From: Candidatus Omnitrophota bacterium
Lineage (GTDB): Bacteria > Omnitrophota > Gorgyraeia > 1-14-0-20-64-10
Direction of reading: 5' to 3'
NCBI GenBank assembly: GCA_023248155.1
Contig: JAHFFE010000008.1
Coordinates: 6,515 to 70,514, forward strand
Length of the DNA stretch: 64,000 nucleotides
Position numbers and translations under genes: made by a program. The notes under the pieces were generated by a model. The model was not told the DNA's origin. It was given only the letters and a program-made list of their open reading frames with translations, and ran no database searches. Of the stretch, positions 1-46,416 are shown piece by piece (position 1 is the stretch's first letter; each line of letters starts with the position of its first letter).

Positions 1-3000
1 GCCAATCAAAACGGACAGGCTATACCGCTTTTTGCCGATCAATATGGTTTTGCGGTTGAAGGATCGGTCCGTCAGGTGGCCGTCCGGTTTGATGATCCGC
101 TCTCCGGCAAATCGCAAACCGAGAATGTTTATCTGCAATATAACCGCGATGCGAAGGGCGATTGGCAGATGGTTACCTACTGGGCCACGGACAAGGTTCG
201 TTGGGATGCCGGCCTGAAAGATAATGTGACCGGTCAGACCGTTGGCGGGTATCGCTATAACGAAACACCGCAAGAGCGCCAGCAGTTCGGAAAAACGCTG
301 GTTCGTGTTGATGGTCTGGTCCGGCGCGATGAAGCCGGCAACCTGAAAATTTTGGCGTTGGGCGGGCTCAATACCGAAAAACTGCCGGCGCTGTCTGTCT
401 TGACCAACAACGGTATGCGGCAATTTGAGGATGTTCGTGTCCGGTTCTATACCGATTCGACATTCCATGAAGTTTCGGCCGGGTCCAAGGTGGGTGGTGT
501 CGGTTATGAAGCGAAGGTCGATGGCAAATGGGTTCCTCTGCATCAGCTGGGTATTGTTCCCGAGGGAATTGATACCGACCGTTCCACGGTGCTGGCGCTG
601 GAATCAACCAAGATCTCTATTGCGGTAGACGCGCAAGGCAACTTCACGCTGGGTAAATCGACCGAGGGGCTTAAAGATCTTAACGGTAAGCCGTTGACCG
701 GTTCGTTAGTCGGCCACCATTCGGAAGGCAACTTTAACCTTTATGTTGGCAAGGGCGGCCAGGTCTTTTATCAGGGTGCCCGAGCAGCAGAAGGTTCTGT
801 CGGTTATCAGCGGGTGGTTCAGCCGTTCATCGCGCAGATTCAATCTCAGGGCAGTTATGGAACCGGTTACCCGGTGCAATATCTGCCGTCTGAAAATCTT
901 GAAGGCTATCGGGATCTGATTGCGCAAGGTTTGGGACTCACTACCGAGCAGATGACTGGACTCTACCCGCAAGGGAAAATTTCAGAAGCTTTCTCCAATC
1001 CGGTTATTTCGTTGGCCGACGCCAATATCCGCGTTACGGTCGATGGCGGCACTTATGGCCGCCAGTTGCCGGGCGAGGGTAACCATCTGGAAATGAACAC
1101 ACAGAATGGATCTTCATTCTTGTTAAGCGGCCAGTCGGGGTTGGATCTGGTTCTCGATCGAACAGAGCAAAGCGTGGGCGCCAACCGCTATACGATTTTG
1201 TCCGAATACAACGGAACAGAGGGTGCCACTGTTAAACTGGAAACGCCGTTGGTCATCCACGAATTTTCGGAGCAAATCCAGATTAACCCGAAGGCTGTCG
1301 CTGAGATTCGGAATTTATTTATTCGCGGCATGGAACGGTTCAAAGGTATGGCTGCCCCTGATTTTGTCAGCGCGATGAAGGACGAATTGCAGAATTCGGT
1401 CAGCCGCTTGACGGCCAGCGGCGTTACACAATCGGTTGAGCCGGTCTACCGCGTTGTTTCGCGGTTTGAACAGCCGGCGCAAGATCCATTGACCAGCCGC
1501 ATGGAATTAACACCGCTCAACGGCCGTATGGTTACGCCGGCCATCCAGGGTGATTCACTCAACCCGGCCTCGTCCATTTCCCTGATGGGAACCAATTACG
1601 CTGTTGGTTCCAAAATTGCGTTTGAAGGCCGGCCTGAGGGGCTGACATTGGCCACATTAGAGGAAGGCCGTGCCTGGAAATCGACCGTGGTTACTAATAC
1701 CGATTTCTTAAAGGCGGTTGGTCTTGAAAAGAACCAGGCGGTCGTAGTGATGCAGCACTATACCTCGGGTAATACGCGCGTGCCACAGGTATTGCGTTCT
1801 ATCAGCGTGGTCAATCCGTCTACCGGCAATAGCGAACTAATGAGCTATCGGTATGATCCAAAATCGGGCGCCGATGTTGGAAGCGGCCAGTTTAGCCTGC
1901 CATTGAACAGCACTCTGGAGTCGCTCCAGAAACAGTTCGGTTCTGTGGATGTTGATGGTTTCGATGCCGGTGCCGGGTTAGAAGTGGTTGGAATGACTGA
2001 TCTGCCGAAGATGACTGCCGTTGCTCTGCGCGAGCAAGGGCAAGAATTAACGCTCGGCATTCAGCGGCAAATGGCTCCGCAATCCGACCAGATGCTCCGG
2101 TTTACGGCTGGCATGGAAGCGGTTCTACCAGGATTGCTTGGCGAACTCGACCGGCAGGGTGTTTCTTTAGAGGCGTTCTTGGGTGCCACTGAGTACGGTC
2201 CAACCTATTCCGGCATGCTAAATCCTGTTTTAGCGGATGCGGCTGACGCTTCCTCCAACAGGGAATTGATCGGCATCGCGGTGCTGGCGCCGGAAGTTAC
2301 GCCGGTTGGCCGGCCGGTTCTGCAGCAAGCGCTGGTTCAACAGCTTTGGCTGGGCCGCAATGGTCAGATCGCTTATGACATCGTTAGCGGACGTGACACG
2401 GCGGTGGAATTGGTTCAATTCTTCGATCCGAAAACCGGCCAGCAGGGCATCGTCACGAACGATCGCACCGGCAACTCCATTTTCTTTGCCAAGGGAACCG
2501 AATGGATCATGCCGATGAAAGATACTCCTACCGTAGATATTGCATGGAAAGCCGAAGCGTTTAAGGTGGAAGGAATTTCTCTAGTGCTCGGCCAGCAAAC
2601 GGCCTGGTTGTTTGATACCAAGAATAACCGGTTTGCCCAGTTGGAAATTAATGGACAAAAAACACAGCCCGACAGTAATGGCTGGGCCCGCATTAATGAG
2701 GGCGATATCTATCAGCTCAGCCGCGACGACGATCCCCGCCGTTTGGAACGGCAGAAAGACGGATCGCTGGCTCCCACCATTGTCTCAACAAACACACTGC
2801 CACCTTCGATGCGCGCCGACACGCTTCCGGTGGCGGAAAAGATAACACCCGAACAACAGTTGGAGCAGTTGAAAGCTTCTGTGAAAAATGTCCGCGACCA
2901 GTTGGGTGAAGCGTTAGGTTCCGAGAGCGCTCCCGGAAAACTGCAAACCCAGACGCGCGAACAGGAAACCCGGCTTGCGCATCTGTATGGACAGACACAG

Positions 3001-6000
3001 GAGCCCGGTGTCCAGCAATCGCGCGACCAGAAACCGCCGGTTAAGCTGGAGGATAAACAGCTGGCTTTGTTGGTTGGTACGGCTGATGAATATGTGAAAC
3101 AGGTCGATGCTTTCCTGAAAGACGGCAAAGCGCTGTCGGAAGACAAAATGAAGGCGCTGTTGGCTTCCGGCAACACGCTGTTGGAGAAAACCAAAGAATA
3201 CCTTGGCAACAAAGATTTCCAGGAACAGTTCGCGGTACTGCAAAAAGCTTCAGGCCAGATGGACAAGCAGCTGACCAAACTCGAGCAGGACTGGAAAGAC
3301 GCCAAGATGTCTCCCGAGCAGAAACAATATCTGGGCGCTCAGCTGCGATTTATGACGGAACAGCAGGCCACGCAGGCGATCCTTTATAGCAAGGCCCAGC
3401 CGCTGGTTGCTTACCAGGAAATGTACCGCGCGGTTACCGAAATCCGGCAAGAACTGGGATTGCGGGGCGAAGGGTTTGCCACGCCGGTCGCCCTGCCCGA
3501 TTCGCTGGCAGAAATCGGTTCCCGGCTTGAAGTACAAGCGCGGGTTATGGATGGTCTGGAAGAACGCCTCCAGGGTTTGCCCATCGCCAAACAAACGGAG
3601 ATTCTGAACGGATTAACCGAACAAACCAAAGCGCTCAATGCCGATCTTGGCAAAGCGTTGGACGACAAAGGAATTCAGGAAAATCTGGGCAAACTGGCTT
3701 CTGATCTTGAAACGATCGTGCCAGATGTTCTTCTTCTTAAGGGCCGCGTCGACAGCTGGGTCAGTTTGGGCCGTCCGGCCAGCTTCACCGTGGACGGCGT
3801 TGATCTGCGTGTTGAGGCCGCGAGTATCGGCTCCAAGCTCGATTCATTGCGCCAGGCTTATCCGGTCACTCGACTGGGCGAACTGGTTGCCAATGTCCAA
3901 CGCAATGCCGGTGATCTTGCGGTCCAATGGAACGAAAAGAACACGCTGTTGGTTCCGATGCTGCAGCAGCAGGCCGCGCAAAGCGCATTCGAATCCAAAT
4001 ATAAGCAAGTAGCTGCTCCGTTGATGGCTATCTACGGCAAAGTCTACGAAGCGGTGGATCGCGTTTATGACAAACAGGCCGAAGGGTACATCCGACGAAT
4101 TGCCGAAAGCACGGCGATATTATTGGAAAAATCAGCAGGAATGGAAAGGGCAGAGGCCACTCTTCGATCGATTGATCAGGCGAAACTTGGAAGTGATCAG
4201 CCCGCTTTCCAGTCCAGTCAGGAAAAGAATCTTGCGCGAACCGCTGATGCGCTAAAACCGGAAATTGCCGTCCTGAAAAAAGAGATCCAGACTGAACAGG
4301 CCGCGTTGCACGCCATTCGAGTGGAACAGCATGCTGCGTGGGACAGAGATGCTCCTCAGCAGGTTCTTTATAAAATTGATGAGAATGGCGAAAAAGTCTA
4401 TTTACGAAAAGATATGGCTGCTACCAATGATGTTGCCAAGCGGACCAATGACACGGTTAATACGCGGGTTTTATACAGCATTCCGAATGAGAAGACGAAG
4501 TCCTGGTTAGAGCTGAATGCCGGCTCTTTAGCGGTCGGTTCCGCGGATGGGAAGATCGCTACGCGCTATGTTTTGCAGCCGGCCAAAATTGATCCGGCAA
4601 ACGAGAATACGGTCTTAGCTCCGGAACGGATGTTGCGCATGACCGATTACGATCCCTCTAAAGATCCACAGCAGCGTGTTCATGTTGAGGAATCGTTGGG
4701 TGAAATCCGGTACGACAGCAATAAAAACTCCAAAGAACTTCCATTTGTCGGAAGTTTCAAAGATCCGGAGAGAGCCGGTCGGAATATCCGGCTGCTTTCA
4801 GAAACGAAATTCCTGAATCCCAGAGAAGCTGTTCGGGTTGAGCGCTTCAGCGGAGAATCCATCTACGAGCAGGCGGCAATTCAGGGAATGGATAAAGAAT
4901 TACAGCAACAGTCGTTTATCGACATTAATAAAATTGACACGAACAAGAATAAATTCCTTGTCAACGCGCGCGCTACCTATATGCGCCTGGCGGAGAATGT
5001 TCCCGGATATGCTGATTTGCGGAACCGCGCCAATATCGCCCAGCAGGAAACCCGCCTCTATTCAAATATAACCGATAATCCTTACCGGGGTACGGTTTTG
5101 GCCAGTGACGCCTACGGCATTTCTCGCGAACGGATCACTCGTGCGGATGATTTTTACGAAGAAACTAAATTTGTTGGACCCGGCGCTACTGAATCGTATC
5201 GGATAGAAAAAGCAACCGGTTTGGCTGATGGAGCCACGCATGTTGCCAAGTATGTTTATACCTATTACGACGGAGAAAAAGCAGTCAGTAATTACATTCG
5301 CGGCTCAGAAACATTTATTAAGGCTCCGGACGGAATCCGTCGCGGAAGCGATGTCCATCCTGATCAGTATGTAACGCCGTTGAATCCGAAACCCGTTGAG
5401 TTGGCAATGATTAAAGCCGGCGACCCCAAGAAGGGGTACACGCTGGACCCGTATGGCACGAGCGCTATGAAAGATTTTGTCGCGGCGCCGGCCAACATTC
5501 CTTTTGGAGGCAGTGAAGGCCGTATCTTGGCGCAGGTCGCCGAGATGCCGCAGTTGAAATTCAAGAGCGAGGCCTCTTTGAAAGAGAATGGCGTAGAGAT
5601 CTATGAAGCGAGAACCAAAGTCGAAAAAGCCGAGCAATTAAAAGTCCGCGACACGGGATTCATGCAGATGGACAGCAGAGTTTATGGCGAATCGGGTGAT
5701 ACCACCGGCAATATCCAATTCGTGGTTCGGAAGGATGATTTCGGAAATCTTCATGTCGATACCAAGGAAAACTACGCGTTTGTAAAAGGCGTTTGGGTGA
5801 ATGCGCGTGTTTTGGCTGTGGGACCGGTGGCGACTTCTATCTGGAACGAAAAACGGTATAACCCCAACCATGTCCAGATTGAAGGCGGAGAGCGATTTAG
5901 CCCTGACCAGCTGAATGCGTCTTATTCACGAATTGAGATTAATAAGGCTGGAGACGCGGAAGAGCGCGTTTATTACGGCAGAACACTGCTCAATTCCGAA

Positions 6001-9000
6001 GAACAGAAATTGAACTATCCCGATAAACCGGACGAACAGGTGATTGCCGGAATTTATAACAAGTTGGATGGAAGCTTTACTGGTAATACCCGAATGATCG
6101 TTCCTTATTTTTCTGATCCGAAGGGCTTTGTTCCTTTCCAGATGCTGTATGGCGCTTTCCATGTCGATCAACTCGGGCGTTGGGCGGCCGGTCCGGATGG
6201 GAAGGTAGATACTTTCATGGGAAATATGACGCCCAACCAGTTTGCCTGGACAACGGCTGTATTTCGCGAGGCGCTTATTTTTGAAGTCGGCGGTTTAGCG
6301 ATGAAAGGTCCTACGCTTGGGGGAGGTATAGGCAGAGGTTATCAGACGGTTGTTGGATGGTCTGCTGGTGCTGCCAGCCGCCGTGCGATTGTAGGACTGG
6401 GAGAGCAAGCTTTTGTTCAAGGTGGTAAAGCATTGTCCGAAGCGGGTATTTTGGTGGGCCGTTCTGCTGCTGCGCAAGTCTATACGCGGGCCTATTCCAA
6501 CGCGGCTGCGCGGCTGTTGTTTAAACCGGTTGGCCAGACGGTGGCAACGCTGGCGGATGACTTGGCCGTAGCGACCGTATCGCGAATCTCGGCGCAGGTG
6601 AGTGTCCATGGCGCCGGGTATCTCTCCGCGAATATTATAGGCCGTACCGGTATGCAGATAGCGACACCGTTCCTGACCCGGCCGGCAATGTCATGGCAGG
6701 CGTTTAGAGAAGGCGCTGGTCAGTTCTTTAGCTCAGGGAAAAATGGATGGGTTTCTCCGGAAAATATAAAAACACTACTTATCCGGACGCCGTTAGATAT
6801 TCAATTCAGGATGAACCCCGCCTTTTCGCTGGCATCAAACCTGGGATTGCTGATTTCTGACCGGATGGGGACTCCGATGGTAAATCAGTATGGGTTGCCG
6901 ACCTCCAACGGATTTTTCTCTACTCATTTCGCTGCCGACCGGCATGGCAGCGAAAATCTCTTTACCGCTGAGAGCTGGAAAAATGCTGTTATGCTGACCC
7001 CGATTATGTTCGCGTCCCAGCCGATTTCCAGAGCGTTGGGCGGATTGATCGGGTTTAACCAGTTGGCTCAGCTTAAATCGGCAGCACATTCTTCAGTGAT
7101 TGCCCAGTATTCGGTCCTCTATATGGATATGAAAGTTCTTTTGCCGGCCGCCGAGGGCGTGATTGTTTCGGGATTGGAAACGGTGGGAATTCCTTCCAAA
7201 GTAGAGGTTTTTGGGTTCTCTTTCAGTCCGTCTGGTTTGATTGCTCAGGTGGTTTCTTTTGGTATCATTGCGCCGCAAATTACACCGAATGCCGGGAAAG
7301 CCGCGTCGGCAGAAGTTTTAAGAACCGAGTCGGCCGATGCCGCGGCGGGCGCTTCCAGAGCGTTGACCGATATCGCCGGCCGTGAAGCCAGAAACCAGCA
7401 GGCCGTACCGCCTGCGACCGAAACTTTGGCCGGAACAGGAGCCGTTCAAGAAACCGTGGCTCGGCAGGTGGATATGGCAGAGCAAACGCAGACGAGCCAG
7501 CAGACGCGGACTGTTGCGGAAACTGAAACACCCGAATTAATCAGACTCAGTGATACGGCGCGGGAGCAGGTACCGGATGCCGAAGGCACCTTGAACCGAT
7601 TGCTCGTTCTTCCGGTGACATCCGGAAGTTCTGCGACCGGAGCGGAATTAGCCGATGTGACAGGATCTTTGCGCGCTTATTCGGGAGAGGCACGCGCCGG
7701 CGCCGGCGATTCCACTTTCCGCGGCGCGCTGCGCCAGGGTGTGGAACATGCCATGGGGATGCTGCAGTCCTGGTTGACAGGCCGTTCTGAACCCGGTAAG
7801 GCGCCAACGGCTACCGAACAATTGGATCTTTTGACTGCCGTGGATAATTTAGCGCAGGCGGTTGAAGCGACAGGTCTTGGGCGAAAACTGGGCGACAAGC
7901 TGGGTGATCTGGCAGGGCAGGCGGCAGGGTTTAAGACTCCGGAATTAAATGCGCTGGCTCCGTCTGCCGCGGCTCCGGCCTCGATTAGAGCGCTTAATTT
8001 GGGTCAATCGTTGCCGCAGAATCTGCAAAACGCCGGTGTTGCTTCTTCACGGGTCGCCGTTGTCGCCGGAAAACTGGGCGAAGTGGTTGCTCGGGTTCCC
8101 GATCAGATCAGACGGATTTCAGGCAGCAGCCCTGAAACCGCGGCTGTAATTACAGTGGCGATAACCCGAAGCGTCGCTTCCTTGGCGCGCTTTGTGCCGG
8201 AAGGGGATGTTCGCTCCCGGCTGGTCCAGGCCCCCAGAGCGGCCGCTGCCGAAATGGCGAAAATAACGCCGCGGCAGGAAACGACCCCGCCAACCGTTAA
8301 AGTTGCCGCTGCTCCGGAGACAACTCCCGCGCAGCCGCAGACTGCGTCAACATCCGACGCGATTCAGATCCGTTCCGTTGAAAACGGAAAAGCGGAAGAG
8401 ATACGGATCAAGCTTGATTCAGACCGTTCGAATGTTTCCTCAGCGACCGATCTTTCCGGGCGGCTTACGCTGACAGTAGACACGAAAGGCAACCTGACCA
8501 TTTCCGCCGAAGGAGAATTGCCGGCCGAATTGCGTAACAGCCGTGTCACCCTCACGCAAGATGGTAAGCCGGTTAACTCAAACGGCCGCGAATTAAACGG
8601 TAAAGTAACGCTCGGGTCTTTGCTCGATAAACCAATTCAGGTCAATACCGATAAAGATTCCGTAAAGATCCGAATCAACAGCGGCAAAGAAGGAACTTTT
8701 GAGGAAACTGCTCAAAAAGCGGCGGATAAGACAGCTGAAACCGCGCGTCCGCGCGAGACCGAGCCGTCCGCTCGTCCGAAAGAATCGTCGTTCCGCGATC
8801 AGGTACGCGCTGTGTTTAACGAAGCCGGCCGCGATTCGGACCAGCAATCATTTGTTACGCAGCAGGATGTTGTTCACAGTACATTCGACGGTGTTCGATC
8901 CGAATTCAACCAGTTAATCGAGCAGGCCGCCAAAGCGGCCACGCCGGAAGCGCGGCAGGCGCTGCTGGAAAAGGCCGTTCAACGGCTGGATCAGATGATC

Positions 9001-12000
9001 ACCGTGGCCGAAGAAGCGCTGGGAGCCATCGGCCGTAAAGGACTCAACGCCGCCGAAACCGGCAAGCTGGTGAACCAGCTGTTTGAAGATGTTTCGAAGG
9101 GGTATGACTTGCTGGCCGATACCGCGCTGGCTGCGGCTGAAGCGCGCGGAGGGAACGCGTCCGGACTGGTGGCTTCGATGGGTCAGTCGTTCAGCCGGAT
9201 GGCCGATTTCGCGGGCAGCGCGGCGCGTCTTCTTCAGCAGGCCGGCGCGAAACCGAGTGAGCTGATCACGCTGATCGGAAAAACAGCGGAACGGCTCATG
9301 GGCGCCGATGGCAAGAGCGGTTCGTTTGGAAAACTGCTGGCAATTTACGATGCCGTTGTAAAAGACGCGAAGGCGACCGCTGCCCAGCGGACCGAAGCCG
9401 TTGTTGGAATTTCCACGGCTGAAGCCAGCCTGGGCCGGTATGTGGAGAGATCATTGCAGACGGCCAAAAATGCCGGAATCAAAGTCAATGCCGAAGCGCT
9501 CGGCAACATGTTCTATGAATCAACCAACGAATACACCAGCCGCATTGAGCAGTTGGATGTCAATAAGTTCGGTGAGTTAACCGCCAATCAGGCCGGTCAA
9601 CTGTTCGGCAATGAACTGGCCGCGATGGAATCGGCGCGCGACGCGTTTGCGGCGGTCCGTTCATCCGGAGGAAAAGTGAACCTTGGGCGGGATGGAAAAC
9701 TGTTCGGCAGAATGGCAACCGCTGTTAGCCGGCAGATCACCGCGGTATTTGCCCAGACGAAAGCCGGCTCCGAACAGTTCTTCGCCGCGGTCGAGGCGTC
9801 GTCGCGGTTGATGGAAGATACCCGGTCGCTGGAGCAGGCCAGATTGTTGGAGAAGGGTGCCGCCGGCGATTTAATCCGTTCTCAGATGAAGACGCTTTCT
9901 ACTGCGTTGGATAAATTGGCTGGAGGCAGTAACGAAATAGTTGCCGCCGGCCAGGAAGCTGAAACATTATTTGTTTGGTTTGAAGCGCTCGTCGGCAGCG
10001 ACGTTTGGTCCGGGTTGGATGCAAACCAGCGCGCTGTTATTCTTGGTTTCTCGATCGAAGCGCAAGCATCGTCTCAGCTGGCTGGTGTTCGCAGTGAGGA
10101 ACAGCATGCCCGCGCGGGTGCTATTTTCCCGCAGCAGGCTACTCGCGGCGCTGGAGCATTCCGCAGCCGGTTGCAGAATGAGGTTCGGAATCTATTCAGC
10201 GATCCCAACCTTTCTGCCGACAGCAAACTTGAGTTGGCTAACCGGGTTGACCGTACTGAGAAGGCGACCCGTTTTGACCGCGCGACCCTTCGCGCCAAGA
10301 ACCAGGCGCGCGCTCAGGCGGCCGATGTGTTTGCTGACCAGGCGCGCGACAATGCGGGAACCGCGGCCGGTACGGCAGCTGCCGTTAAATGGGCAATCGC
10401 TCGCCGGACGCCGGCCGCCGATCGCCTGTTGGAATCGACCGGCGCTACGCGGTCCGATAAATCGCGCGGTTCTCCGGAGGATCTGGCTTCTCGTGCTGCG
10501 CAAGCCAATACCCCCGAATCCCGCCGTGCTGTTTCCGAAATCTGGGCCTCATTAAAACAGGAACTTCGTCAGCGCTCCGACTTTACTTCTGAAAGAGAAC
10601 TGGATCTCGACAGCCGCCTCTCCGGCCGCGCTCCCGAAACTCCGCGCGAATCGCCGCAGGAATTAATCGCGAGAACGGCTCCCGCTCTGAACAAAGCGGC
10701 GCAGGCCAAGTTGCAGAAAGCTCCCGTGGAACCGGTTGAAGTGGTTCGCATCGATAAGGCGGGCCGCAACGCGCTGCCGGGCTTGAAAGAACTTCCCAGC
10801 GGAAAAGACAGAGACACAATCATTGAAAACAGGATCCAGTCGATGTCCGATCAAAAACGGCTGGAAACGCTGACCAAGCAGACTGAGATTGGCACCAAAG
10901 ACGGAACCCCTGTGCTCGCGCTGCAGGTTGTCGAGGGCGATCGCGGATTCTTAATCTCTCTGGATTCCCGCCTCTCCACCGGCGGCACGGTCCGTCAGCG
11001 CGTTGCCACTGAGCTTGTCCGCCGCGCTGAGGTACAGATCCTTAGCAAGAGCCAGTTAGAAACGGTCTTCCGCCAAATGCATGCGGACAATGCCTCCGGG
11101 AAAACGATAGAACTTCCCGGCGGAAAATCACTGCCGAATATTGCGGCGGTTCGCGAAGTGATTGATCAGGTGGTGGAAGGGCCGGTCCGTCGGGTCGTTG
11201 AGGGAGATGGTTTGCAGGCACTGTTTAAATCAGGCTCGGAAATCGACACGCTCTCTAAAAAGATTGGCGAGCAGCTTGACCAGAAATTGCCTGTGGTCGA
11301 GGCCACGATAGTCTTGAACGACCGGCCCACCGATGTTGTGATGACCAACGAACTGGCACGTGAGATAGTGAAAAAACTGTCCGAAATCCGGAAGCCGTTT
11401 TACGCGAAAGAAGCCGAATCGGCCGTGACAACGGTACTGGAAACGGTTGTGATTCCGGAGGGCGCGACACCGCAACAAAGAACCGCCGCGATTGTTTCCG
11501 CATTGACCGGCAAGATTATCGAGCCGATGAAAGCGGCCAAGCCGGATGCGACCAACGGACAGGATATCGTCGTTACGATCACCGCCGATGGAACGGCCCA
11601 TAAGGCTCCCCGCGCAGATTTTGTGAAAGCAATGGCCGGCACTATTGGCGCGGAAGTAGCCGAGCGATTGGCTTATGAAGGAAAATTGGATCAGCTTACT
11701 TCTGATCAGACGAAAGAACTGGTCGGCAAACTTTCTGATACCGTCCGGTCAGTTGAAGCTGAAACGCTCGATGGATTGCGCAAAGGATTATTTAATGACG
11801 AGCAGATCATCCTTAACGACGCGGCCGATAATGCCATCCGCGGTGCCATTGTTCCCGTACTGGCGTCCAGAGCTGAACAATTGGCGAGGGAAGAGTTAGG
11901 GCAGACCGATCGGATTAATTTCCATAAGCCGGCGGAAGGCAAAGATTCATTAACGGCTTTAAAGAATACCGAGACCCGGTTGCTGAATGAAACCGGCACT

Positions 12001-15000
12001 GCCCGCGGCAGCCGCGAACATGCGGTGATTCTGATTGATTCACTGCCGCGTTTATTCGAGCAGAGCCAGCGCAACGGTCTGGCGTTGTCCGGGAAAGCGC
12101 TGTCGGAAGATCTTTCGAAAGAAATTACTGCCTCGGCCGATTTTCATGGCCAGCTAGCCCGCGATGCTCGAACTCAATTGGTTAACAGTTCTGAAAACCA
12201 TACGGCGTTTGGCTCGAACGAGCAGGTCAGTTCGCAGATTGACCGCGGCTGGAATAATATTTCGATTGATCGGACCTCTCTGAAACAGGGACAAGTCGAT
12301 CATTTGACCAGTATTGTCCGGCTGGAAGCGGCCGGTTTGGTGCGCGACGCGCTGGAGCCGTTTGCCGTATCGGGAGCTACGCAGGATCAATTTAATAAGG
12401 CCGGTCTCACGCCCGCGTTTATCGAGCGGTTGGGCTATGACAGCGATGGTTTGAAACTGGAGAGCGGTAAGACGGCCTATGCTCCCGAAACCGTTCAGAC
12501 TGTTCGTGGAAAAGTGGATTCGGAAGCGCGTGTCCGCGTGCGGGCCGAACAAGTTCGGGACCTCAAAGGTTTCCCATCGATTCGGCCTGAGCAGTGGGCC
12601 GCGATCCGCAATATCGCCATGGGCGATAAATATTCCGTAGAAGCGCTCTCGACCGGCGGTGGGAAAAGCTCATTTGTTTCTCCGGTGCTGGCGGCTTTCA
12701 TTTATGACACCACCGGTGAGAAGGTCGTCGTGGTCTTCAGTGATGCCGGATTAATGAAGGCCGGTTATAACGATGCCGCCCGCGTATGGGGTGTCGGAAA
12801 ATATTCAGACAAGCCTGGGTTGACCACCAATGGAAAGAGCGACGGACCAAAATTCGACGTCTATCTCCACGAGACCGGACATATTCCTGAGCGGCTCGAT
12901 CCCGAGCTGGAAAGTGCCAATATCATCTACACGACGCTTGAAGGTCTCAAGTCGGCCTCGTTGGCCGAGAAACTGGGGACTTCTCCTAATGCGTTCGAGC
13001 CGTTCCGGCAGGCCAACTATCTGATTGACGAGTTCGACACGCTGAAGCTTGATCCCGATCTGCAGGGAACGCTGCCCGGCAGCGGCATTACGCTGGCTCA
13101 GTTTGGACATGTGCAGACCCAAGTGGAAACCGTGGTCCGTTATATCCGCGCCACCTACGGTGAATCCGCCGTGGAAAATTTCCGGGAAGGCAAAGGCGGT
13201 AATGGTCTGAGTAATTCCATCGAGCAGTCTCTTACCTATACGGAAACTGAACTGTCGCCAGAGCTTCGCATCGTTGCGAACAGGGGCGATATCCATGAAA
13301 TGTCTGCAATCGGTCTAGAAAGAACAGCCAATGGGAATTATCGCTATACGCCACGGCATGACCAGGTTCATTTCAGCCCTGAATTTAAAGAAGGTTTAGT
13401 GGAGTATCTGCGCGAGAAGAGCGTCAGCCTGGAGTTGAAATTCAATCAGGATACTCAGTTCAGCGATTTTGTCGATTCTCCCGAAGGCCAGCAGTGGATG
13501 GCCGCGGCCGATGAAGTAGCCCGCGCCGTGACGGCGATTCACGGCCGTGATTTCGCGACGGACGCGACGCTGGCCGATGGCACCATCAGCAGCCGCAGCC
13601 CGACGCGGCTGGTTCCGGTCCACGAGGCCAGCGGCGGTACGCAGACCCGCCAGCATTGGAGCAATCCGTATCAGGCGGCTGCCTATAACGAAGTTTTGTC
13701 CGGAGAATTCCTCAAGAGTTCGCCGCTGCCGGCCGGTGAAATCCAACTCGATCCAACCAGTACGCGCGTCAGCACGAACGATGTTTTGGCCGATATCCGT
13801 GCCGGGCATATTGCAGCCCGAGGTGAGAACGGAACGGGTCCGCAGCTTCGTATTCATGGTTATTCCGGAACCGGTATTCAGGGCGGCGGCGGTCGTTTGC
13901 TGGGTCGTCTCTTCGGTGTGACGGTGCCTGATGTTGAGGCGCGCGCGGAGAATCTGGGAAGCTTGGCCGCAGATCAGTTCACCGTTTTACGCGGTCCCGA
14001 TGCGATGCAACAGGCGCTTTCGCAGTCTGCGCGCGTCACGATTGATGTGACCACCGTGCTGGATTCGAAGATCAACGAGACTCTCTGGCGCAGTGAGAAT
14101 CAATCGTCTGCCCATGTTATTCGCGACGGCGAAGGCAATTTCTGGTATTTCGAAAAAGGTTCCAATCAGCCCCGGTCGATTGATTATGCCGACGCGCGCC
14201 TGCTGGCGCTCAATGACAATGTCCGGTTCTTTATTCATCGTGCCGGAAGCCGTGGTCTCGACCTGCCGATTCCGGAAGGCGCCGGCATCCGTGTTCTGGT
14301 CAGTGACAGCACCGGCCTCGACGCGCTGGAACAGGCGCTCGGCCGTTGGCGCGGTGAGTACAATCACCAGCTGTGGGGTGCCGACAACTACAAGCCTGGA
14401 ATCGGGCAAGTCCAAAAAAATCAGGTTGATCTCGTGATGATTGATTCACGGGAAACCGGGCCGAATACAATCTCCAAGGGTGAGTTGGAGAATATGGCGG
14501 TCCAGAACCAGAACCGGGCTGTTGATCCAACGGCCTTAGGCCAGCAGATTCAGACCACTTTCTCAACCCGCGCGCAGTGGCAGTTGGGCAAGATGTTGAC
14601 GATTGTGCAGGCCAGTCCTGGCAGCGAGGCATGGGCGGCTCCTCTGCGGCAGAAACTGAACGATTTGATGGAACATAATGCAGCGGCTGCCAATCATCAG
14701 CAGACCGGAACTGCTTTGCAGTCAGGCGAGCATCAGCTTGTCGAAGCAGTGCGCAACGGCCTGCGGGGTGAAGTTTCAGCCATGGCTGAGGTTCGTTCGT
14801 TGGAAGCTTCCGGTGAGTATGGCCCATTGCCTGCAGAGGCAAAGGCCATTCTGGAAGAAACGTTAAGCAACCGCGTTGCCGATTTTGAAACCGAAGGCCA
14901 TCTGCTGACCCGCAATGAATTGGGACAGATTGCCGCCGGTAAGGGATCTGAATTAACGGCAGACACGCAGGCTGTTTTAATCCGCGGCGGCTACGCGGAG

Positions 15001-18000
15001 AAGGCCGATGCCACCGGCGTTCTGCGATTGACCGAGAAAGGCCAGAGTTCTTTGACTGAACTGGATCGGGCAACGGCAACGGTTCCAATCGTGTCATCTC
15101 TCTCAGAAGCCAGAACCGTCAGCCAGGCAATCCGGTTCGTTCAGTCTGAAGTGGGCCGCGAAGAACTTCCACTGCTGGCGGGCCGTTCCGCACCCGACTC
15201 GGTTCGTACGCTGACATTGCGCGATAATTTGAACGGTCTTCTGGAAAGCGTCGGATTAACGGAAGGCGAGCGAACCAATTTCCTCAACAGTCCGGAACTG
15301 CAGCGGCTTCAGGACGGGCAGGGCCGCTTCATCGGCGAGTCCGGTCGTAATTTTGTCGAGACCTCAGAACAACTGGTTGCCGCTGTGCGGAATGATTCCG
15401 ACCGTGGAGCGCTTTCGACGGCGCTGACATCGCTGGGCCATTCCGATTGGGCCGCGATCGTGACAAATGGAACGCAGCCGGGTAACGGCCTCGCGCTGGC
15501 ACAGACGGCGCTCGGTTTGTCGTCCAGCCCGCTGACCGATCCGCAATCCGGCGGCGTTAAATTCCTAGTTAGCGTCGGGTATCAGCTGCAGTTAGAACAG
15601 ACCCCGGCATCGGTTCAGTTATCGCCGAGCGATTGGGCCCGTTTGCAGACTTCCTCGAATATGGGGCTTGAGCTGAACTCGCTTCTTGGTACCCGTACGA
15701 CGGTTGATCCGGCGCTGATGGCGCGCGCGCAGTCAGGTCAGGAAACCATCCAGCAGGTGCTGCCGATCCGCCAGCAGCTGCATCAGATAGAAAAAGAACT
15801 CGATTCCATTCAGGACAGCCGTATTGAAGAAGCCGTGAAAACTGGCCGCGATAACCCGGTCTCGGTGAAGCGGGGTGATAAGAATGATCCATTGCCGGCC
15901 AACCTGGTTTTGAAGGAAGCGGAATTGACGCGCCGCCGCGATCAGACTCAGACACAGTTGACCAAGGCCGAGAAACCGCTGGACAAAGGTCTTCTAACGG
16001 TGGCCGATCTGGTGACTACGCATGCCGGCGGAGATGTGGACAGAGCCGCATCACTGGCCGTTCGGTTTAACCCGGCGTTGCAGTCGTACTCGCATAGCCA
16101 GTTAACGCAGGCGCTGCGCCGCTTGACCCAGCCGGTCAGGGATAATGGTTTCGGTCTGCAAGGGCGGAGCATCTCGGTCTATGATCTCGACAACTACCTG
16201 CGCGACTCGCGTGAATTCCTGAAAACCGCTGCGCCTTCGCGCGGCCTGTTGTCTGAAGCTTTGACCGAGTTGGATAAAGCGATTGATTTGGAAAAAATAG
16301 AGGGAACCCGGACCAAGGATAAGTCGAAGTCGGAAGTCACCCTGCCGATTATTGAAGCGGCGGCCGCCGCGACGGTTGCCCGTTTATCGGCCGGCCGAGT
16401 TGAAAAAATGGCCGGAGAAAATGAAGACGTGCCCCTCTTGGATGGCGTTCCTCTGACCAACGAAAGGGTTACCCGCTTGTTAATGACCGCGGTTAATCCG
16501 ACTGCTTCCGACAATGATTTATCGGCGGCGGTGACGATCGGCTCTGTGGCAACCGATTTGTCTGAACAGCAAGTCGGCAGTTATCAGACTGATCCGTCCT
16601 TATTAAGAGCGCGCCAGCGCGCCGCACTCGAATCGGCCGCCCGGCGTGTTGCCTACCGCGATGTTTCGAACAAGGCCGAACAGCTGGTGGCCCGTTTTGA
16701 AGCACAGGATAAGTCGTTAACGCCGGCTGACCTGAAAATTATTTATACCGCCTTCGAAGCCCTTGAGAATAAAAAAGACAGGGGTGCCCTTGTGCAGATT
16801 GTCCGCGCGCAATTATCGCAAAACGAGCTTTCTGCCGGGCAGATAATCCAGCAGCATCCGGCGGAAGTTGTATCAGAATACCGCAGCGCGCTGTTGCGCG
16901 ATCCGCTCAGCCTGCTTCCGTCCATCAGCCTGGTTGCTTCGGTCGCGTCCCAGGAAAAGATCAACAATAATTCGTATGCGTCTCTGGCTGCCGGCCGGCG
17001 AACCTTGATCGATCGCCTCGATTCAGTCAACCGGTTGTTTAACCCGGACCTGCAGGAGTCTGCGGCGACCGGGTTGGTAGAGGAGCGGCTGGGTATCGTT
17101 TCTCTGACGGCCGCTTCCAATGTCTCGATCGAACAGTCGTTGCTGCACTTAAATCGCATGGTGGCCAACGGCCGGCAGGAATTCTCCGATCCGGCCGGAA
17201 TCTTTGTCCGGCTCAACCTGAAACTGACCCAGGCTTCTTCCTTGCGGATCGACGAGGCTCGTTCGGCCGCGGCGCGTGTGACGCATCTGTTAGAAAAAGG
17301 ATTGCGGCGTGAAGATTTGGTTCCGCAGATTACGGCTCAGGCCGTTGATCAGTTGCGCGCGAAGGTCGGTCTGCCGCCATTGAACCTAAACCAGGTCCAG
17401 CGCGTGGTCTATGACCGCTACCTGCCGTTTGTGGAACGGGAATTGGGCGGCGTTGCCAATCCGGCGGCCAGCCAGAAACAACTCTCTTCCTATGCGGTCA
17501 ATGAGCTCAAATCAATTTTGACCGATATGGGCAATCCGGTCGCGTCGAACATCGCCCAGCAAATTTCCGATATCACGATTTTGCAGCTGGTTCAGTTAAG
17601 CCATAACTTAAACCAGCAGGTCTTTATCCCGAACAACACGGCGATCGCGATCCATCCGGAAGGGATCACGGCCGGCGCGTTGTCCGATGTGAAAGACCGG
17701 AATATTAACGGCATCACCGTTTTTGATGTCTTGGTCGATCAACCGTTTGAAAATGTGATGGGCAGCACGCCGGGTGCCATGCATTTTGAAAATGTCGGCG
17801 TCGCTATGCCGGAAAAAGGATTCCGCGTTCTGGATGTCGTTTCGATGCTGCGCGCTGGCCAGGTGAATATTCAGGCGCAGAAGATTGCCCGCTTGCTTCG
17901 CGAGAGCGGAGATTCGGCCAGCCTTCAGGTCGCTAATCTGGTTATCAGCTGGGCGCAACAGATTGAAGCTCAGGTTGACCGCTCCCGCATTACGATTGAC

Positions 18001-21000
18001 GGCACCGCGCGGTCTTTGCAGAAAAATCAGCGGATTGAGGAAAGCTGGCACGCTTCCGACCGCGCTTCCGTCGGCCAGCTAGGTGATGTGGCCAGCCAGG
18101 GTTCTCAGGCCATTCCGGCTACTGTCGCGGCGATACTGCGTGAAGACGGCCGGCTAATTCAAGTGGTGGCTGGTTCCGCTGATCCGGCAGCGATGGCCGC
18201 GGCGCGCAGCCAGTTAACCGGAGATGATAATGGTTCCGTCTTCGAGTTGTCGGCGAAACTGGAACGGTTGCGCGCTTCCAGTGACATTAATGAGTTGGCG
18301 ATCGAATTTACCAACACCTTGATTCAGTGGGAAAACGACAGCGGTTTGTATGTGAAGGCGTTCGGCTGGGTTCTGCGGATGATGGACAGCAAGGGTGTTA
18401 CTCTGTCCGGTGCTACCGCTGATGAAGCGATGGCCGGGTTCCGCCGCGGCATGGCCGATATTCAGAACGATACCTTCTACCGCTATGATGAGCGGCTGGA
18501 GCGGCTCGATGGCGACCAGCAGCTGAAGATGCGCTTTATTGGACGGGATACCGCGCAGCAGAGATTCTTTGTTCAAGCATCGGCTGAAAATCGTGCCGCT
18601 TATGTTGCCACACAGCAGGCGCTGGCTCGTTCGGTCGACAGTTATTTAACCCGGGCCGGACTGGAAGAAGGTGGCGGTGAAGAACCGAAGCCGGAAGAAA
18701 TCGCCGCTGCCAAAGCCAAGGAAATCGATACCGCATGGAAACAGCTGACAGCAATTTCCAAAGATGTTCAGGCGCCGATCGTTATCTCAGCGAATATTCG
18801 TCAGGCTAACGGCATCGTGATGCCGGCTGAAGCGGTACTCATTGAGCAGGCAATGGCTCGCCGCGTGGATGCGGCTGTTCAGCGTTTAATCGAACGGATC
18901 AACGGTGCTGCCGTTATCCGCCGCATGAATGTTCAGGAAGCGGCGATGGATGCCGTTGAACGGCAGGTACCGGTCTTCCTGATGAATAACGGGCGGCCTG
19001 AGCGCGTGATGGGTATGGATCGCAGCGGTCTGCTCGTCACGATGGGCGTTGGAAAAGACCAGACGCTTCAGCAAATAACCGCCGATCCTGCTCTGCAGGA
19101 AGCCGATTTCCTGGTCGGTGTTTTCCAGCCGATTGCGTTGGGTGAGCCGGTGACGCTCAAGCGAGGCGGTGTCGATGAACAGGTCCGGTTCGAATTTGTT
19201 TCTAACGGCGCCACAGCTTCTTCTTGGGAAATGCTGGACAAAGACGGTATTACTGATGTCATCCGTTCGCTGGCAAGAGAACCCGGATCATTTGAACGGT
19301 TTGAAGCCAGTTGGAAAACCCAGCATGAGACACCTGGCACAATCCACGCGGTGGCCCGTGACTCTAAGGGCCGCATTGTCGCCTCCATCGTCACTTATCC
19401 CGACTCTGCGGAAGTACATCCGGGTGATTACGCGGCTGCTCAGCAGGCCGGAGCTTCTTATTTAGTCAGCCAGCCGGCTCTTTACATCAAATATTGGGCT
19501 GCTGCCGATGGTGATAAAAAAGTCAGCGGTGCCGGCGATGCGCTCAGAGCCGCGCTGTTAAAAGCTTTGAAGGAAGGGAAGGTTTCTTCAAAGGATCGCA
19601 AGCCGTATCAATTGGTTACCTTCCACGCCAGAGCCGAACAATTCGGACAAGAAGGAACAGCGGCTCCGTCTGTCTTCGATATTTTGTGGAAAGAAAAGCT
19701 TCAGTTATCTGCTGACTCATATGATCTGATTACTCAGAAGGGATATTACCAGGGGTCTCATGGCGAAAGCGTGGATGCTCACTACGCGATTATCAAAACA
19801 GATAAAATTTTCTCAGAACAAACACCGGTTCCGCCGATTCAGAAGAGCGGCGCCGAAGAAGCGGTTATTGAAGAATCGGTAATTAATGAATTCGCCGATG
19901 GCCTGTTAGGCCGCCAGCTGGACGCGGTCATCACCAGCCAGATTGATCAGTTAACGGCCGGTTCAGGACAGGAATTAAGAAAACTGCCGGAAATCCGCCG
20001 GTTATCGGTGACCGATGCTGATATGAACTCGGTGATGGAAGCGCTGAAAGATCCTCGCACGATCGAAGACTTAAACTGCGCCTGTGCGTCGGCGGTCAAC
20101 TACGCGCGCGCGATGGGCCAGCAAGTGACCGCGCCGGATATGGGCAATATTGTCCACCGGTTCGTCGGACTGATGGTCCGGCAGGCGCTGACCGACAACG
20201 GCAGTTCACTGACGCTCTATGAGCGGTTGGGCATGGGCGAGCGTCCGTCGATCCCGGTTCCATTTGAACTGATCCAGACGGTATTGGCCACGCCTGGCCT
20301 GATTGCCGCCGCGCCGCGCGGATTTGTAACGACGCTTTACCAGACCTCCGCGGTTCCGGCAGGGAAAACCGTGACGGTGATGGAACGGACCGAATCGGTT
20401 CCGGTTCCGTCGGCGATTTACAGCCGTTACGCCAGGGAAGGTTTTGTACTGGGGAATCGCAACGGTCCGTTTGTTGCTTATCTGGAAGGGCGCAACATTG
20501 GCGGGCATGCCGCGGTAGTTTCTGCGATGCCGGATGCCGTTACAATCAGCCCGGTGGCGCCGGTTAGCGTGCGCGGATTTATGGTTCGCGGTCCGGCCAT
20601 GTTTGCGATCAAAGACGGCGTTTTGTACGCTGACAGCAAACAGGTAACCGGTCTCGATCAGGCGTTGGCCACGGTTCAAACCAGCCGTTGGCAGAAGGTC
20701 GCGATGGCAGGAATTGGTGGGGCTCCCGGTACGGTCAAGGCTGTTGATGAGATGGCCACCGCGGTCATCGAAGCGGCGAATTCGAATACGAATTCGTCAT
20801 CGCCGGTTGAAGGGCTTCCGCCCGATAATAGAGTACTCTCGGGCAGTCTTAGCAAGGCGAAGAAGCGGCTTGCTCGGCAGGCTGTTGCAAAGAGTAGGTT
20901 TGAAACCTGGCTCAGCAAACTGGCCCGGATTGCCACGCTGGGTGAAGAGCTGGCAAAGTTCCAGGAAGGATTGAATGAATTAAACAAATTGGATGATGGG

Positions 21001-22898: not shown

Positions 22899-25800
22899 AT
22901 GATCGTTCGCTTTAACCGGAAAACAGGGCAATCTTCCGAAGGAACTCCAGTTCCTGGCGAAGGCGTTTTACTTCCGGTCCAGCGCCCGCGGTTAAGACCG
23001 GTTCTGCGTTCGGTCGCGGCAGTCACGCTGGCGGCCTTCACGATCACTTCCATCGTTCCGTCCGTTTTCGCGCAAACCGTTCATTCGAAAGAAACACTGC
23101 GTCCGGTTCAAGAAGCGGAAGGCAATAATAAAGAAAAGGTTGGCGGCCTTGAAGAACGTCTGCGTGCTTCTGGTTCTGAACCGATTTCGGCTGATCCAGT
23201 ACTACTCACCCCGACTCCTTCAGTTTCAGCAGGCGGCCAAGGTGATGGACTCGCCACCACCACTAATTTCTGGGTTAACCGATCTGGAAGCCCTATTGCC
23301 GGGAAGGAAGAAGATTCCGCGGTCCGCGTTGATCGCCGCACTGCGCTGGCGGCAGGTTTATTGGGTACGGCAGCGGTAGCCACGGCGCTGACAGCGCCTG
23401 TTTCACTGCCGGCCCAGGATGTTACGCCACCTCAACCCAAGGTTGTTGCCGCTGCTCCGAAAGCTGCAGCGAAACCAGCCCCACGCCCTGTTCTTGTGGA
23501 ACAGATCACCAGTAATCTTGTCCAGAATGACAAGGGACAAATACAACTCGAAACCGTTTCTCGAGGGACACGGTCAGACCGGGTGATTGCTCCTCCTACG
23601 AAAGAGTCGCGCCATCCCATGATAGCTGCGGTCCAGGCCGTTAAAGCCACTTTGACCCGCGGTCAGGAGCTGGTCCGCTCGTTTCTCACGGGTCCTTCTG
23701 AAGTGATCCGCTGGTTCGCGGTCAAAAACCACGCGCGGTCGATTATTCCAAAAAATCATCCGAATGTCATTCTCTCTCTCAACGATTTCCGGCCGTTTAT
23801 TGATCAAGGCCCGGAGCGGGTTGCAGTGGTATTAAAAGCAATCGGTGCCGCGGCCAAAGCTCAGGGTTCCAAAGTATCGATCGCGCTGGATATTGGTGCT
23901 TTTGTCGATAACCGGGATTTCAGTGATTTGAAAACGCCGATCAGCGCTAACACCACCCGTGATTATCTGGTTCCATTTGTGACCGAAGCAAAACGGCAGG
24001 ACATCAAAGTGCTTCCTTACAGTTCCGACCGCGGCGTGATGCTGGATATCGGAAGTTACAAGCGCGAATTACAGGATGCCCTGCAAATGGGCTTTGACCG
24101 CGAAGCGATCGTGACCGACTGGGAATGGTGGGCGTCGCCTCCCGGTGTTGAGAATCTATGGGAAACACTAACGCTTAATAAACAGGATGACGCGAAGGCG
24201 CAACTGGCGCTTGAGTGGCTGAAAGCTCATCAGCAACTGCTTACCAGTGTGATTTCAGACAAAGAAATTCCGGTTACCGCCAAGCCCACTCAAATCTACG
24301 CATTGGTGAATCAGGATTTTGCGCAGGTGCTCATCAAGGCATTAGACGGTAAACCGTTGCCGTCACGGTTTCATTTGGTGGTGATGGCCTATAACACGCC
24401 TCGCGGCAAAGAGGCCGAGTTTGTTCAAGCAGCGCAGAAGTCTTCGGCCGACTTGACCGGCCAGAAAGCCAGCGGCTACGCGCTCAATTTTGAAAGGGAT
24501 GCCAGCCCGGATCAATCATTAAACGGTTTGGCTGTTGAAGGAAAAGTTGGTGAAACCGTTCAGCAGATTGCCGCGCAGGCCAAAACCGGCGGTGAACCGC
24601 TCTTTATGCATATTCCGTCGCATCGTGATCTGACCAGTTTAATGGAAACCGGCAAGATGGTGCCGGTGTTACCAGCCGATCAGGTTGAGCTGGCTCAAAC
24701 AACGGCTATTGCCTTGGGTAAGATGGTGCTCGGCGGCACACCCAAATCTCCCGAAATTATTCGCCGTTATTTACCAAGACCGGAAGATACCGCCACGGTG
24801 ACGAACCGAATTGCCGTGGAGCCGGTGACCCATGGTATTGGCTTTGGCACCACCGGTGTTGGTACTGTCGGGGCAGTCGGTCGCAATGTGGAAGCATGGA
24901 TGGGCAAGGGCGTCTGGTGGTTCCTGGATCCAGACACATTTATTTTGGGGCCGGAGGCCGGCTTGACCGTTTCTGCCATGAAAAAAATCGTCGGTACTCT
25001 GGTCAGGGGTGAATTGGAAACCGTCAGCATGGAATTGATCGTGACGCCGCTGGGTGAAGACGGCCGACCGTCGGGTCCGGCATTGCCGCCTATTTCAGTG
25101 ATGGGTGTTCCGGATCCGACCCGCGAACTCAAAGGGGCTCGTTACGACGCGCAATTGCGCGTTAAGCTGCGCCGGCCCGGCGAGCGCCTGGCGCAAAATC
25201 CTGAGAGCTGGCCGCTGATTAATGCCTCGATTGAGGCTGAAGTCGCTTTGGGCTATCCCGGCTACGGCCGCACGCCGCTGACCGTGTCGGAAGCGATCCA
25301 TATTCCTCCAGGGCGTGGCAATGAAACCGCTGAGGTGACGATTCCTCTGGGTGAAATTACTCCGACCATCAGCTTTTTTATTTTGCGCAGCCGCGATAGC
25401 CAGGAAAAAATCACCGGTTGGTATGGCCCCGTAAACCCGATGTATATGTCACAGTTCACCGATTATCTGCTCGACCAGAAATACAAAACGAAATGGGCTC
25501 ATCTGGAGACCGTCTGCGCCGATCCCAATACCAGTGCTCAGCTGTTGGCTGAAGCGACCGAAGAGATGAATCGGATGGGCGGGCATGTGACGGCGCTGCA
25601 GCTGGCGGTCGATCACCGGGGTGATCTGATGGTGCCGGTTTCAGTTGAAGAATACAAAGATGCCGCCTCCATGCGCGCACAATTTCAATCGCTGCGGGAG
25701 CATGGCGTAACCCATATTTCCGTGCGGGTTCCTGAGATCGAACAGAATGCCGATAAATATCTGGTTCAATACGCCGAAAAAGATATTTGGGGTGTCGATT

Positions 25801-35396: not shown

Positions 35397-35564
35397 AAAG
35401 AATTTTTCCTCAAAAAATTTTCCATCCGGTTTTTCTCGCCAGTTGTTTGCTTTCACGCTATAATAAATAAACAAGAACCTGACCCTCATCTCGTCGGCCA
35501 GGAGTACAATCGGCTGCCGGGGTGGGGGAATTTCTTCCGGCGCTTTTAAAACAGATTGCGATTG

Positions 35565-39932: not shown

Positions 39933-40085
39933 AGTCAGATAATTTTTTAATGATATTTTTGAGGCAAAAGCCATCGGTCTATGGCATACTTACACTAGAG
40001 CGATTGAATAAAAAGTTTCGTGGCGGAAGAACGGGTTTCGCCGCGAGATTTTTATTTAGCTCCCTTTTTTCAAAGATCAAAATAG

Positions 40086-44315: not shown

Positions 44316-44325
44316 ACGCGCTAAA

Positions 44326-46401: not shown

Positions 46402-46416
46402 TGTGGTGATAATCCT

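Follow-up and report, generated by a model that had tools for sequence, protein, structure and literature searches.

Giant proteins are commonest in Omnitrophota, where the full-length ones all contain numerous transmembrane regions, and most of these Omnitrophota proteins carry divergent SecA_DEAD and preprotein-binding domains without the scaffold or wing of SecA (West-Roberts et al. 2023, bioRxiv 10.1101/2023.11.21.568195). In the same work, the SecA domains of the giant proteins formed a long-branched clade apart from the canonical SecA that is encoded in the same genomes, and were proposed to function in exporting either their own giant protein or else accessory proteins. A 20-protein cluster with a PF07517 architecture has since been described among long Omnitrophota proteins (bioRxiv 10.64898/2026.06.07.730766). 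As to the way in which proteins of 10,000-85,000 residues are made, exported and assembled in bacteria, the SecA-like domains in the Omnitrophota giants are the only obvious clue. Here, we analyze a stretch of 64,000 nucleotides (nt) from Candidatus Omnitrophota bacterium (assembly GCA_023248155.1, contig JAHFFE010000008.1, positions 6,515 to 70,514 of the forward strand; hereafter, the window) and, specifically, a motor module embedded in its giant open reading frame (ORF) G1. Judging from its motifs and profile alignments, this module, at amino acids (aa) ~4110-4790, is very probably a SecA-type ATPase of superfamily 2 (SF2), albeit a highly divergent one. It is a new, unusually divergent addition to the class already described in the Omnitrophota giant proteins, with a polytopic membrane protein encoded by the adjacent gene.

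Results

Motifs of the module

An earlier note on this DNA had proposed that G1 contains an embedded P-loop NTPase with a helicase- or SecA-like core, on the basis of a Q-motif-like stretch, a Walker A motif, Ia- and Ib-like motifs and a DExD-type Walker B. The exact strings quoted there are all found in the G1 translation (Table 1), and the spacing between the two Walker motifs, given as about 125 residues, measures 121 (K4197 to D4318). The range assigned to the core, 12580-13100, lies inside the module but stops halfway through the first RecA-like domain, whereas the whole extends over ~12400-14450. Beyond that range, we identified motif III and, of the C-terminal helicase motifs IV-VI that the note had suggested looking for downstream, motifs V and VI along with a motif IV-like strand, RVTIDV. 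The note had made its proposal depend on the arginine-finger/motif VI region; this region is present together with motif V, and Arg4726, Arg4757 and Arg4759 are all invariant.

Conservation of the catalytic positions is strict. Invariant across the 7-8 family sequences that cover them are the Lys of Walker A, the Asp-Glu of Walker B, the Ser-Gly of motif III, the Arg-Gly-x-Asp of motif V and the Gln..Gly-Arg-x-Arg-Gly of motif VI; taken as entire motifs, these elements are unchanged or nearly unchanged. The ordered chain G.GK[ST]...DE.D...RG.D...GR.{1,2}R at the observed spacings did not occur in any of 2,000 residue shuffles of G1. The Q-motif-like segment can be aligned with SecA and with three DEAD-box proteins, Spb4, Mss116 and MJ0669, at their Q-motif, and in one relative (L001, see below) the Walker B motif is a literal DEAD.

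Two further motifs appear to be specific to this family, the leader just upstream of the motor and a hairpin motif within the second nucleotide-binding domain (NBD2). The latter has no counterpart in SecA; the weak resemblance of RDGEGNFW to an SH2 strand (GRB2-related adaptor protein, E=0.11) was judged to be probably due to chance.

Table 1. Positions of the module, its motifs and the neighbouring genes in the window
Feature	Position	Strand	Details
G1, giant ORF, host of the motor module	76..22710	+	7,544 aa as listed
Motor module in G1	aa ~4110-4790, nt ~12400-14450	+	motifs and alignments
Leader motif AGLTPAFIERLGY (AGLTPEFIEAAGY-like), family-specific	12400..12438	+	just upstream of the motor; alignments A1, A2; kept in all relatives covering the region; no known counterpart
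Q-motif-like GFPSIRPEQW (Gln4173)	aa 4165-4174, 12568..12597	+	Gln invariant in 7/7 covering sequences
Walker A / motif I LSTGGGKSS (Lys4197)	aa 4191-4199, 12646..12672	+	TGxGK[ST] invariant; aligns to SecA TGEGKT
Motif Ia-like VVVVFSDAGLM	12724..12756	+	conserved; aligned to SecA VHVVTVNDYLA
Motif Ib/Ic-like ANIIYTTLEGL	12916..12948	+	aligned to SecA ADITYGTNNEYGFDYL; A4281, T4287, L4291 invariant
Walker B / motif II YLIDEFDTL (Asp4318, Glu4319, Asp4321)	aa 4315-4323, 13018..13044	+	D-E-x-D in 8/8 sequences; aligns to SecA DEVD
Insertion of ~260 aa between motifs II and III, position of the SecA preprotein cross-linking domain (PPXD)	13063..13845	+	hhalign alignment runs through to SecA residue 356
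SecA 'return-stem' signature RLVPVHEASGGTQTRQHWSNPYQAAAY	13606..13686	+	matches SecA 330-356; V, P, Y, A invariant in 8/8
Motif III HGYSGTG	13855..13875	+	SecA: GMTGT; G-x-S-G invariant; aligns to M. tuberculosis SecA2 GMTGTA
Second RecA-like domain (NBD2)	13876..14445	+	invariant Asn4626 (equivalent to Asn of SecA PTN); motif IV-like strand RVTIDV; aligned to SecA2 378-458
Hairpin motif (V/I)RDGEGNFW inside NBD2, family-specific	aa 4680-4692, 14113..14151	+	near-invariant; Asp4684, Gly4687 invariant
Motif V HRAGSRGLDL	14236..14265	+	SecA: MAGRGTDI; R-G-L-D invariant in 8/8
Motif VI EQALGRWRG	14329..14355	+	candidate arginine fingers Arg4757, Arg4759; Q..GR.RG invariant in 8/8
G2, 4,165-aa polytopic membrane protein, directly downstream of G1	22899..35396	+	12 or more strong hydrophobic segments, most of them within aa 1693-2088
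G3, G4, G5, G6, four large paralogous ORFs (716-1,732 aa)	35556-51615		N-terminal region contains a hydrophobic segment in all four
Five tandem paralogous genes	51669-57606		four with carbohydrate-binding modules (CBM30, CBM9, CBM11, CIA30-like; 51669-56629)

Relatives of the module

The sequence of G1, taken by itself, matches little in the family databases. A Pfam search over the whole of G1 yielded DUF1912 alone (E=0.086), with no meaningful match anywhere, and over the module the DEAD family appeared at E=0.12, below significance; the NCBIfam search of the module gave no match, and phmmer against PDB returned a single chance match to WASP (E=0.3). Four relatives (P0001-P0004, 558-3,968 aa) were detected with E=2e-88 to 2e-25 when 1.84 billion representative proteins were searched exhaustively with HMMER, and an alignment-based metagenome scan added three further giant ORFs, L001 (5,937 aa), L002 (4,925 aa) and L003 (4,012 aa). 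With G1, these form the family set of eight sequences (alignments A1-A3). All seven relatives are giant or truncated ORFs that show 24-38% overall identity to G1 and keep the motifs wherever they cover them.

Other searches yielded little more. No relatives were found in a word-indexed search of 5.8 billion proteins, whether with the module or with alignment A1. A GTDB genome scan gave no match with the single module sequence and one locus with the alignment, the same ORF as P0001, which is located on PCVW01000047.1 (L006) of the metagenome-assembled genome Candidatus Omnitrophica bacterium CG11_big_fil_rev_8_21_14_0_20_64_10. P0003 and P0004 come from short contigs with uninformative genome context.

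Among the eight modules, Pfam DEAD is matched by five and SecA_DEAD by four, with a best E-value of 1.3e-7; Helicase_C and SecA_PP_bind are unmatched. Of the individual relatives, P0003 exceeds the cut-offs for both DEAD (28.4 bits, cut-off 26) and SecA_DEAD (25.5 bits, cut-off 24.6), P0004 exceeds that for ResIII (24.2 bits, cut-off 22.5), and L003 falls just below that for DEAD. Because these matches cover the same region as the module in G1, the assignment to the P-loop SF2 class holds by transitive homology, although G1 alone does not reach significance. Thus, the embedded NTPase of the earlier note is confirmed, whereas the Pfam check that it proposed succeeds for the relatives and not for G1 alone.

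Two of the relatives contain enzymatic domains that are absent from G1 according to Pfam: a SAM-dependent methyltransferase at aa ~5280-5410 of the L001 ORF (198-18011), and a GNAT acetyltransferase together with DUF1771 in L003 (ORF 43-12081). These additional domains agree with the mixed enzyme content reported for Omnitrophota giant proteins.

Profile comparisons with SecA and helicases

Compared with E. coli SecA using hhalign, the family profile (alignment A2) produced a match with a probability of 85% and E=6e-6 over 272 columns, with residues 59-422 of the module aligned to SecA 74-356, so that SecA is the better half of the 'helicase/SecA-like' label originally given to this region. 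The SecA segment takes in Walker A, Ia, Ib, Walker B and the preprotein cross-linking insertion, and the sub-block from Walker A to Walker B yields E=4.6e-6 by itself. Within the insertion, GNYRY...HFSPEFKEGLVEYL is paired with the SecA segment, and the alignment closes at RLVPVHEASGGTQTRQHWSNPYQAA, which faces the SecA stem returning from the preprotein cross-linking domain to the first nucleotide-binding domain (NBD1). An extension past residue 422, obtained with -mact 0.1, was out of register and was not used.

In a panel of E. coli SF2 proteins, the hhalign scores were 55.5 for SecA, 38.8 for RecQ, 26.9 for RhlE and 18.4 for RapA. The RecQ (P=6e-4) and RhlE (46 columns, P=0.02) alignments each comprise ~45 columns in the Q-motif and Walker A region only, and RapA gave no alignment to the family profile; only SecA aligns beyond Walker A. 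When the whole-module profile was compared with PDB (177,635 sequences), the top match was Thermus thermophilus SecA (2ipc; E=0.026), extending from Walker A to Walker B.

For the C-terminal half of the module, the top PDB match of the profile was Mycobacterium tuberculosis SecA2 (4uaq; E=0.041), and no helicase was found. In this alignment, GYSGTG faces GMTGTA, Asn4626 falls on the Asn of PPNKPN, and the RVTIDV strand coincides with the first strand of NBD2. No correct alignment of NBD2 was obtained against the single sequence of E. coli SecA. Past motif VI, the resemblance to SecA ends: the following 450 residues are conserved within the family, but a seven-sequence profile of this region showed no similarity to SecA 600-901 (hhalign P=0.8) and there was no SecA_SW match, so that the idea of a SecA scaffold or wing at this position was dropped.

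Structure prediction

The five-sequence AlphaFold2 (AF2) model of the module is confident only in the insertion from module residue 250 (residues 250-390; predicted local distance difference test (pLDDT) ~67-90) and in part of NBD2, where residues 570-620 form an alternating beta/alpha arrangement with pLDDT ~67-82.

The conserved block around the motor and the topology of G1

Residues 3566-6140 of G1 are collinear with the giant ORF of L001, and residues 4105-5788 with P0001, showing that the motor belongs to a conserved block far larger than itself, which exceeds 2,000 aa and is common to L001, L002 and P0001. Downstream of the motor (nt ~14450-18500, aa ~4800-6140), more than 1,300 residues are collinear with the ORFs of these three relatives at 26-31% identity; this stretch matches no known family. 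The C-terminal 1,195 aa of G1 had no match in PDB. The G1 frame is free of stop codons back to window position 1 (ANQNGQAIPLFADQYGFAVEGSVRQV... at 1-75), so the protein may extend further upstream. A Kyte-Doolittle scan of G1 as listed revealed one marginal segment (score 1.61) and no convincing transmembrane helix; the scan also failed to confirm a central membrane region, hydrophobic and rich in Gly and Ala, that G1 had seemed to contain at first sight.

Neighbouring genes

The neighbourhood of G1 and the polytopic G2 is conserved: in both L001 (19620-21236) and L002 (15187-17409), the giant ORF with the motor is followed by a G2-like sequence, which makes G2 a candidate membrane partner of the motor. 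Its transmembrane region had no match in PDB, and an exact-match look-up of the G2 sequence found no record. The hydrophobic segments of G2 coincide with a sharp dip in AT skew (-0.29) at 28001-30000.

Pfam detected nothing meaningful in G2 and G4-G6, and two sub-threshold matches in G3 (E ~0.04). Among the four large paralogues downstream of G2, G3 and G6 share 49% identity over 256 aa, and the C-termini of G5 and G6 share 68%; the listed start of G5 (44251) overlaps the end of G4 (44315). In the subsequent row of five tandem paralogues, the fifth gene (56626-57606) has no Pfam match. The row agrees with the carbohydrate-binding theme that has been noted around giant genes of Omnitrophota, and it is followed by a gene for a PDZ-TPR protein and then by nagB and DUF4954. 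For the last of these, an NDP-sugar-pyrophosphorylase-like gene (60599-62548; L004), the named relatives at 58-66% identity all belong to Candidatus Omnitrophica, and relatives from other phyla, Hydrogenedentota and Latescibacteria among them, do not exceed 57% identity. Together with the genome that harbours P0001, this gene assigns the window, which has no marker gene, indirectly and most probably to Omnitrophota. The same gene has an exact match on a 15-kb ENA metagenome contig, ERZ27280021, which overlaps the right end of the window, and a 96%-identical relative at NCBI.

Discussion

The combined motif and profile results define the layout of the module as a SecA-type NBD1, a PPXD-like insertion and NBD2, without the C-terminal half of SecA; as far as the sequence allows us to say, this is a relative of SecA rather than a SecA. 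All catalytic motifs are intact, which argues for selection for catalysis; because every catalytic residue has been kept despite the divergence, the ATPase is predicted to be functional.

Several observations weigh against a SecA-type motor engaged in export. The sequence of G1 itself is not significantly similar to any Pfam, NCBIfam or PDB entry, and every PDB match of the family profiles is below the threshold (E ~0.03-1). The part of the SecA alignment that covers the insertion and the return stem, when scored alone, reaches only P=0.02-0.14. Structure prediction adds no usable fold, with mean pLDDT values of 34 for one sequence and 51 for five sequences, and Foldseek found no meaningful fold match for the AF2 model. 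The identification of NBD2 rests on motifs, the weak SecA2 match and a low-confidence model. The view of the topology of G1 is confined to the part inside the window, with the N-terminus lying beyond it. Finally, given that no scaffold or two-helix finger is detectable, the canonical mechanism of SecA is not simply transferable to this module.

We infer the ATPase activity, the polypeptide substrate, the involvement in export and the partnership with G2 from the genome sequence, and these parts of the model differ in strength. Action on a polypeptide is probable, and a specific role in export is close to an even proposition. The energy-dependent translocation suggested in the earlier note is plausible and accords with the published proposal for such domains; for its description of G1 as structural, the data speak neither for nor against. 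In the proposed mechanism, ATP would be bound and hydrolysed in the cleft between the two RecA-like domains by Lys4197, Asp4318/Glu4319 and Arg4757/Arg4759, and its turnover would open and close the PPXD-like clamp on an unfolded polypeptide. This cycle, in turn, could aid the export or membrane insertion of parts of a giant-protein surface apparatus, with G1 itself, G2 or the downstream G3-G6 as candidate substrates. The two-helix finger of SecA is thought to push the substrate into SecY. Because this element was not detected in the module, such a push cannot be assumed, and a clamp or a ratchet appears more defensible. The motor would act at the membrane via its polytopic neighbour G2 or via SecYEG, given that G1 shows no convincing transmembrane helix; the window contains no secY, secE or secG. 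Taken as a whole, a SecA-type module that drives polypeptide export or insertion for a giant-protein surface apparatus is the best explanation of these data, and we favour it by a modest measure.

A more specific and distinctly improbable version of this model is that G1 and G2 constitute a conserved two-gene export device that is independent of SecYEG. Under this scenario, a SecA-derived motor devoid of finger and scaffold, on a giant without transmembrane segments, would pass unfolded polypeptide into a novel ~14-helix channel formed by G2, with parts of the giant proteins or G3-G6 as its substrates. If true, this would be a previously undescribed translocation system for very long surface proteins of predatory ultra-small bacteria.

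The module could instead be a SecA-derived cytoplasmic unfoldase, holdase or remodeller that plays no part in export and keeps the giant protein or its partners unfolded, assembles them, or feeds them to processing peptidases. The apparent lack of transmembrane helices in the visible part of G1 fits such a role, as do the undetected SecA scaffold and two-helix finger, and the embedding of the motor in the >2,000-aa conserved block suggests a larger cytoplasmic machine. However, the adjoining, conserved G2 is strongly polytopic, the hydrophobic segments in the N-terminal regions of G3-G6 together with the carbohydrate-binding modules point to an exported surface apparatus, and the motors of P0004 and L003 reside on polypeptides with N-terminal transmembrane helices. 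We therefore regard a purely cytoplasmic function as unlikely.

Somewhat harder to sustain is the possibility that the module is a nucleic-acid helicase or an RNA chaperone of the DEAD-box or RecQ type, acting on RNA or DNA, for example, on the very long mRNA that encodes it. In Pfam, DEAD is matched by no fewer family members than SecA_DEAD, at similar E-values, the Q-motif/Walker A region aligns to RecQ in addition to the DEAD-box proteins named above, and one relative has the literal DEAD box. Nevertheless, the helicase alignments end after Walker A, at the point from which SecA alone continues through Ia, Ib, II and beyond. The Ia (FSDAGLM) and Ib (TLEGL) segments of G1 resemble the VNDYLA and TNNEFGFDYL of SecA, not the RNA-binding PTRELA and TPGR of the DEAD-box helicases; an insertion of 260 residues between motifs II and III, with the return-stem signature of SecA, is not a feature of either DEAD-box or RecQ proteins; and the C-terminal half matches SecA2 and no helicase. 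Taken together, these differences render a helicase function rather improbable.

It could also be argued that the module has degenerated, lost its ability to hydrolyse ATP and persists as a structural or binding element only. The extreme divergence, to the point that Pfam fails on G1, is compatible with such decay, and so are the very long branches of such domains in published trees (bioRxiv 10.1101/2023.11.21.568195). However, in a degenerate domain, the catalytic positions would not be expected to be invariant in sequences of such low overall identity, which makes this explanation very unlikely. Giant multi-domain 'polyvalent' proteins with SF2 ATPases occur on plasmids and phages. With this precedent, and with the ResIII match in one relative and the methyltransferase or GNAT domains in others, we considered a helicase of a mobile element or of an anti-phage defence island, and rejected this origin as highly implausible, in view of the lack of any match in PADLOC models, IMG/VR contigs, 72,556 plasmids or 50,697 phage records (the latter two by tblastn), the housekeeping neighbours nagB and DUF4954 in the window, and the absence of mobility genes among the ORFs scanned.

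With regard to SecA-type motor modules in Omnitrophota giant proteins, the present locus is a solid confirmation of a phenomenon that is already in the literature rather than a discovery. What it adds is a very divergent subfamily, invisible to Pfam in G1 and represented by four relatives in 1.84 billion proteins. The SecA-like order of NBD1, insertion, motif III and NBD2, minus the scaffold, narrows the range of possible mechanisms. Furthermore, the location of the motor and the polytopic region on adjacent syntenic genes amounts to a natural 'split' that suggests a defined pair of partners.

Comparison with known systems

The DEAD-box RNA helicases (PF00270; Spb4, Mss116, RhlE) resemble the G1 module in possessing the Q-motif, Walker A and the DExD box, and their motifs III, V and VI are of the same general form. 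Apart from the difference in motifs Ia and Ib, they deviate from G1 in the position of motif III, which follows Walker B by 276 residues in G1, whereas the SAT of the DEAD-box helicases lies ~30 residues past DEAD.

The similarity to M. tuberculosis SecA2, the top PDB match of the C-terminal half, albeit at E=0.041 only, extends from motif III through the first strand of NBD2. By analogy with SecA2, the G1 motor would represent an additional SecA paralogue, specialised in particular substrates. Unlike the G1 module, SecA2 is a free-standing protein of ~800 aa that keeps the scaffold domain.

Canonical SecA, as in E. coli and T. thermophilus (2ipc), displays the same order of elements as the G1 module: Q, I, Ia, Ib, II, insertion, return stem, III, a PTN-like Asn, a IV-like strand, V and VI. 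The identity in the aligned region is ~19%. The insertion is longer in G1, ~260 aa versus ~150 aa in SecA, and motif VI reads GRxRG in G1 as opposed to GRxGRQG in SecA. Unlike canonical SecA, the module sits in the middle of a giant polypeptide, and neither the helical scaffold domain with its two-helix finger nor the helical wing domain or the C-terminal tail could be detected in it.

The closest parallel is the class of West-Roberts et al. As in that class, the G1 motor is a divergent SecA-type domain that lacks a detectable scaffold or wing and carries an insertion resembling, by its position and to some extent by its sequence, the preprotein-binding domain; it is embedded in an Omnitrophota protein of many thousands of residues, and carbohydrate-binding genes are found nearby. 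With 7,544 aa or more, G1 is smaller than the proteins of more than 30,000 aa on which that study focused. Furthermore, those giants carry numerous transmembrane helices on the same polypeptide, close to the SecA-like domain, in contrast to G1, which has none that is convincing inside the window and is accompanied by the polytopic region on its syntenic neighbour G2. Hence, the module fits the published description of the giant-protein SecA in every feature tested, save the place of the transmembrane region, which is encoded by the neighbouring gene.

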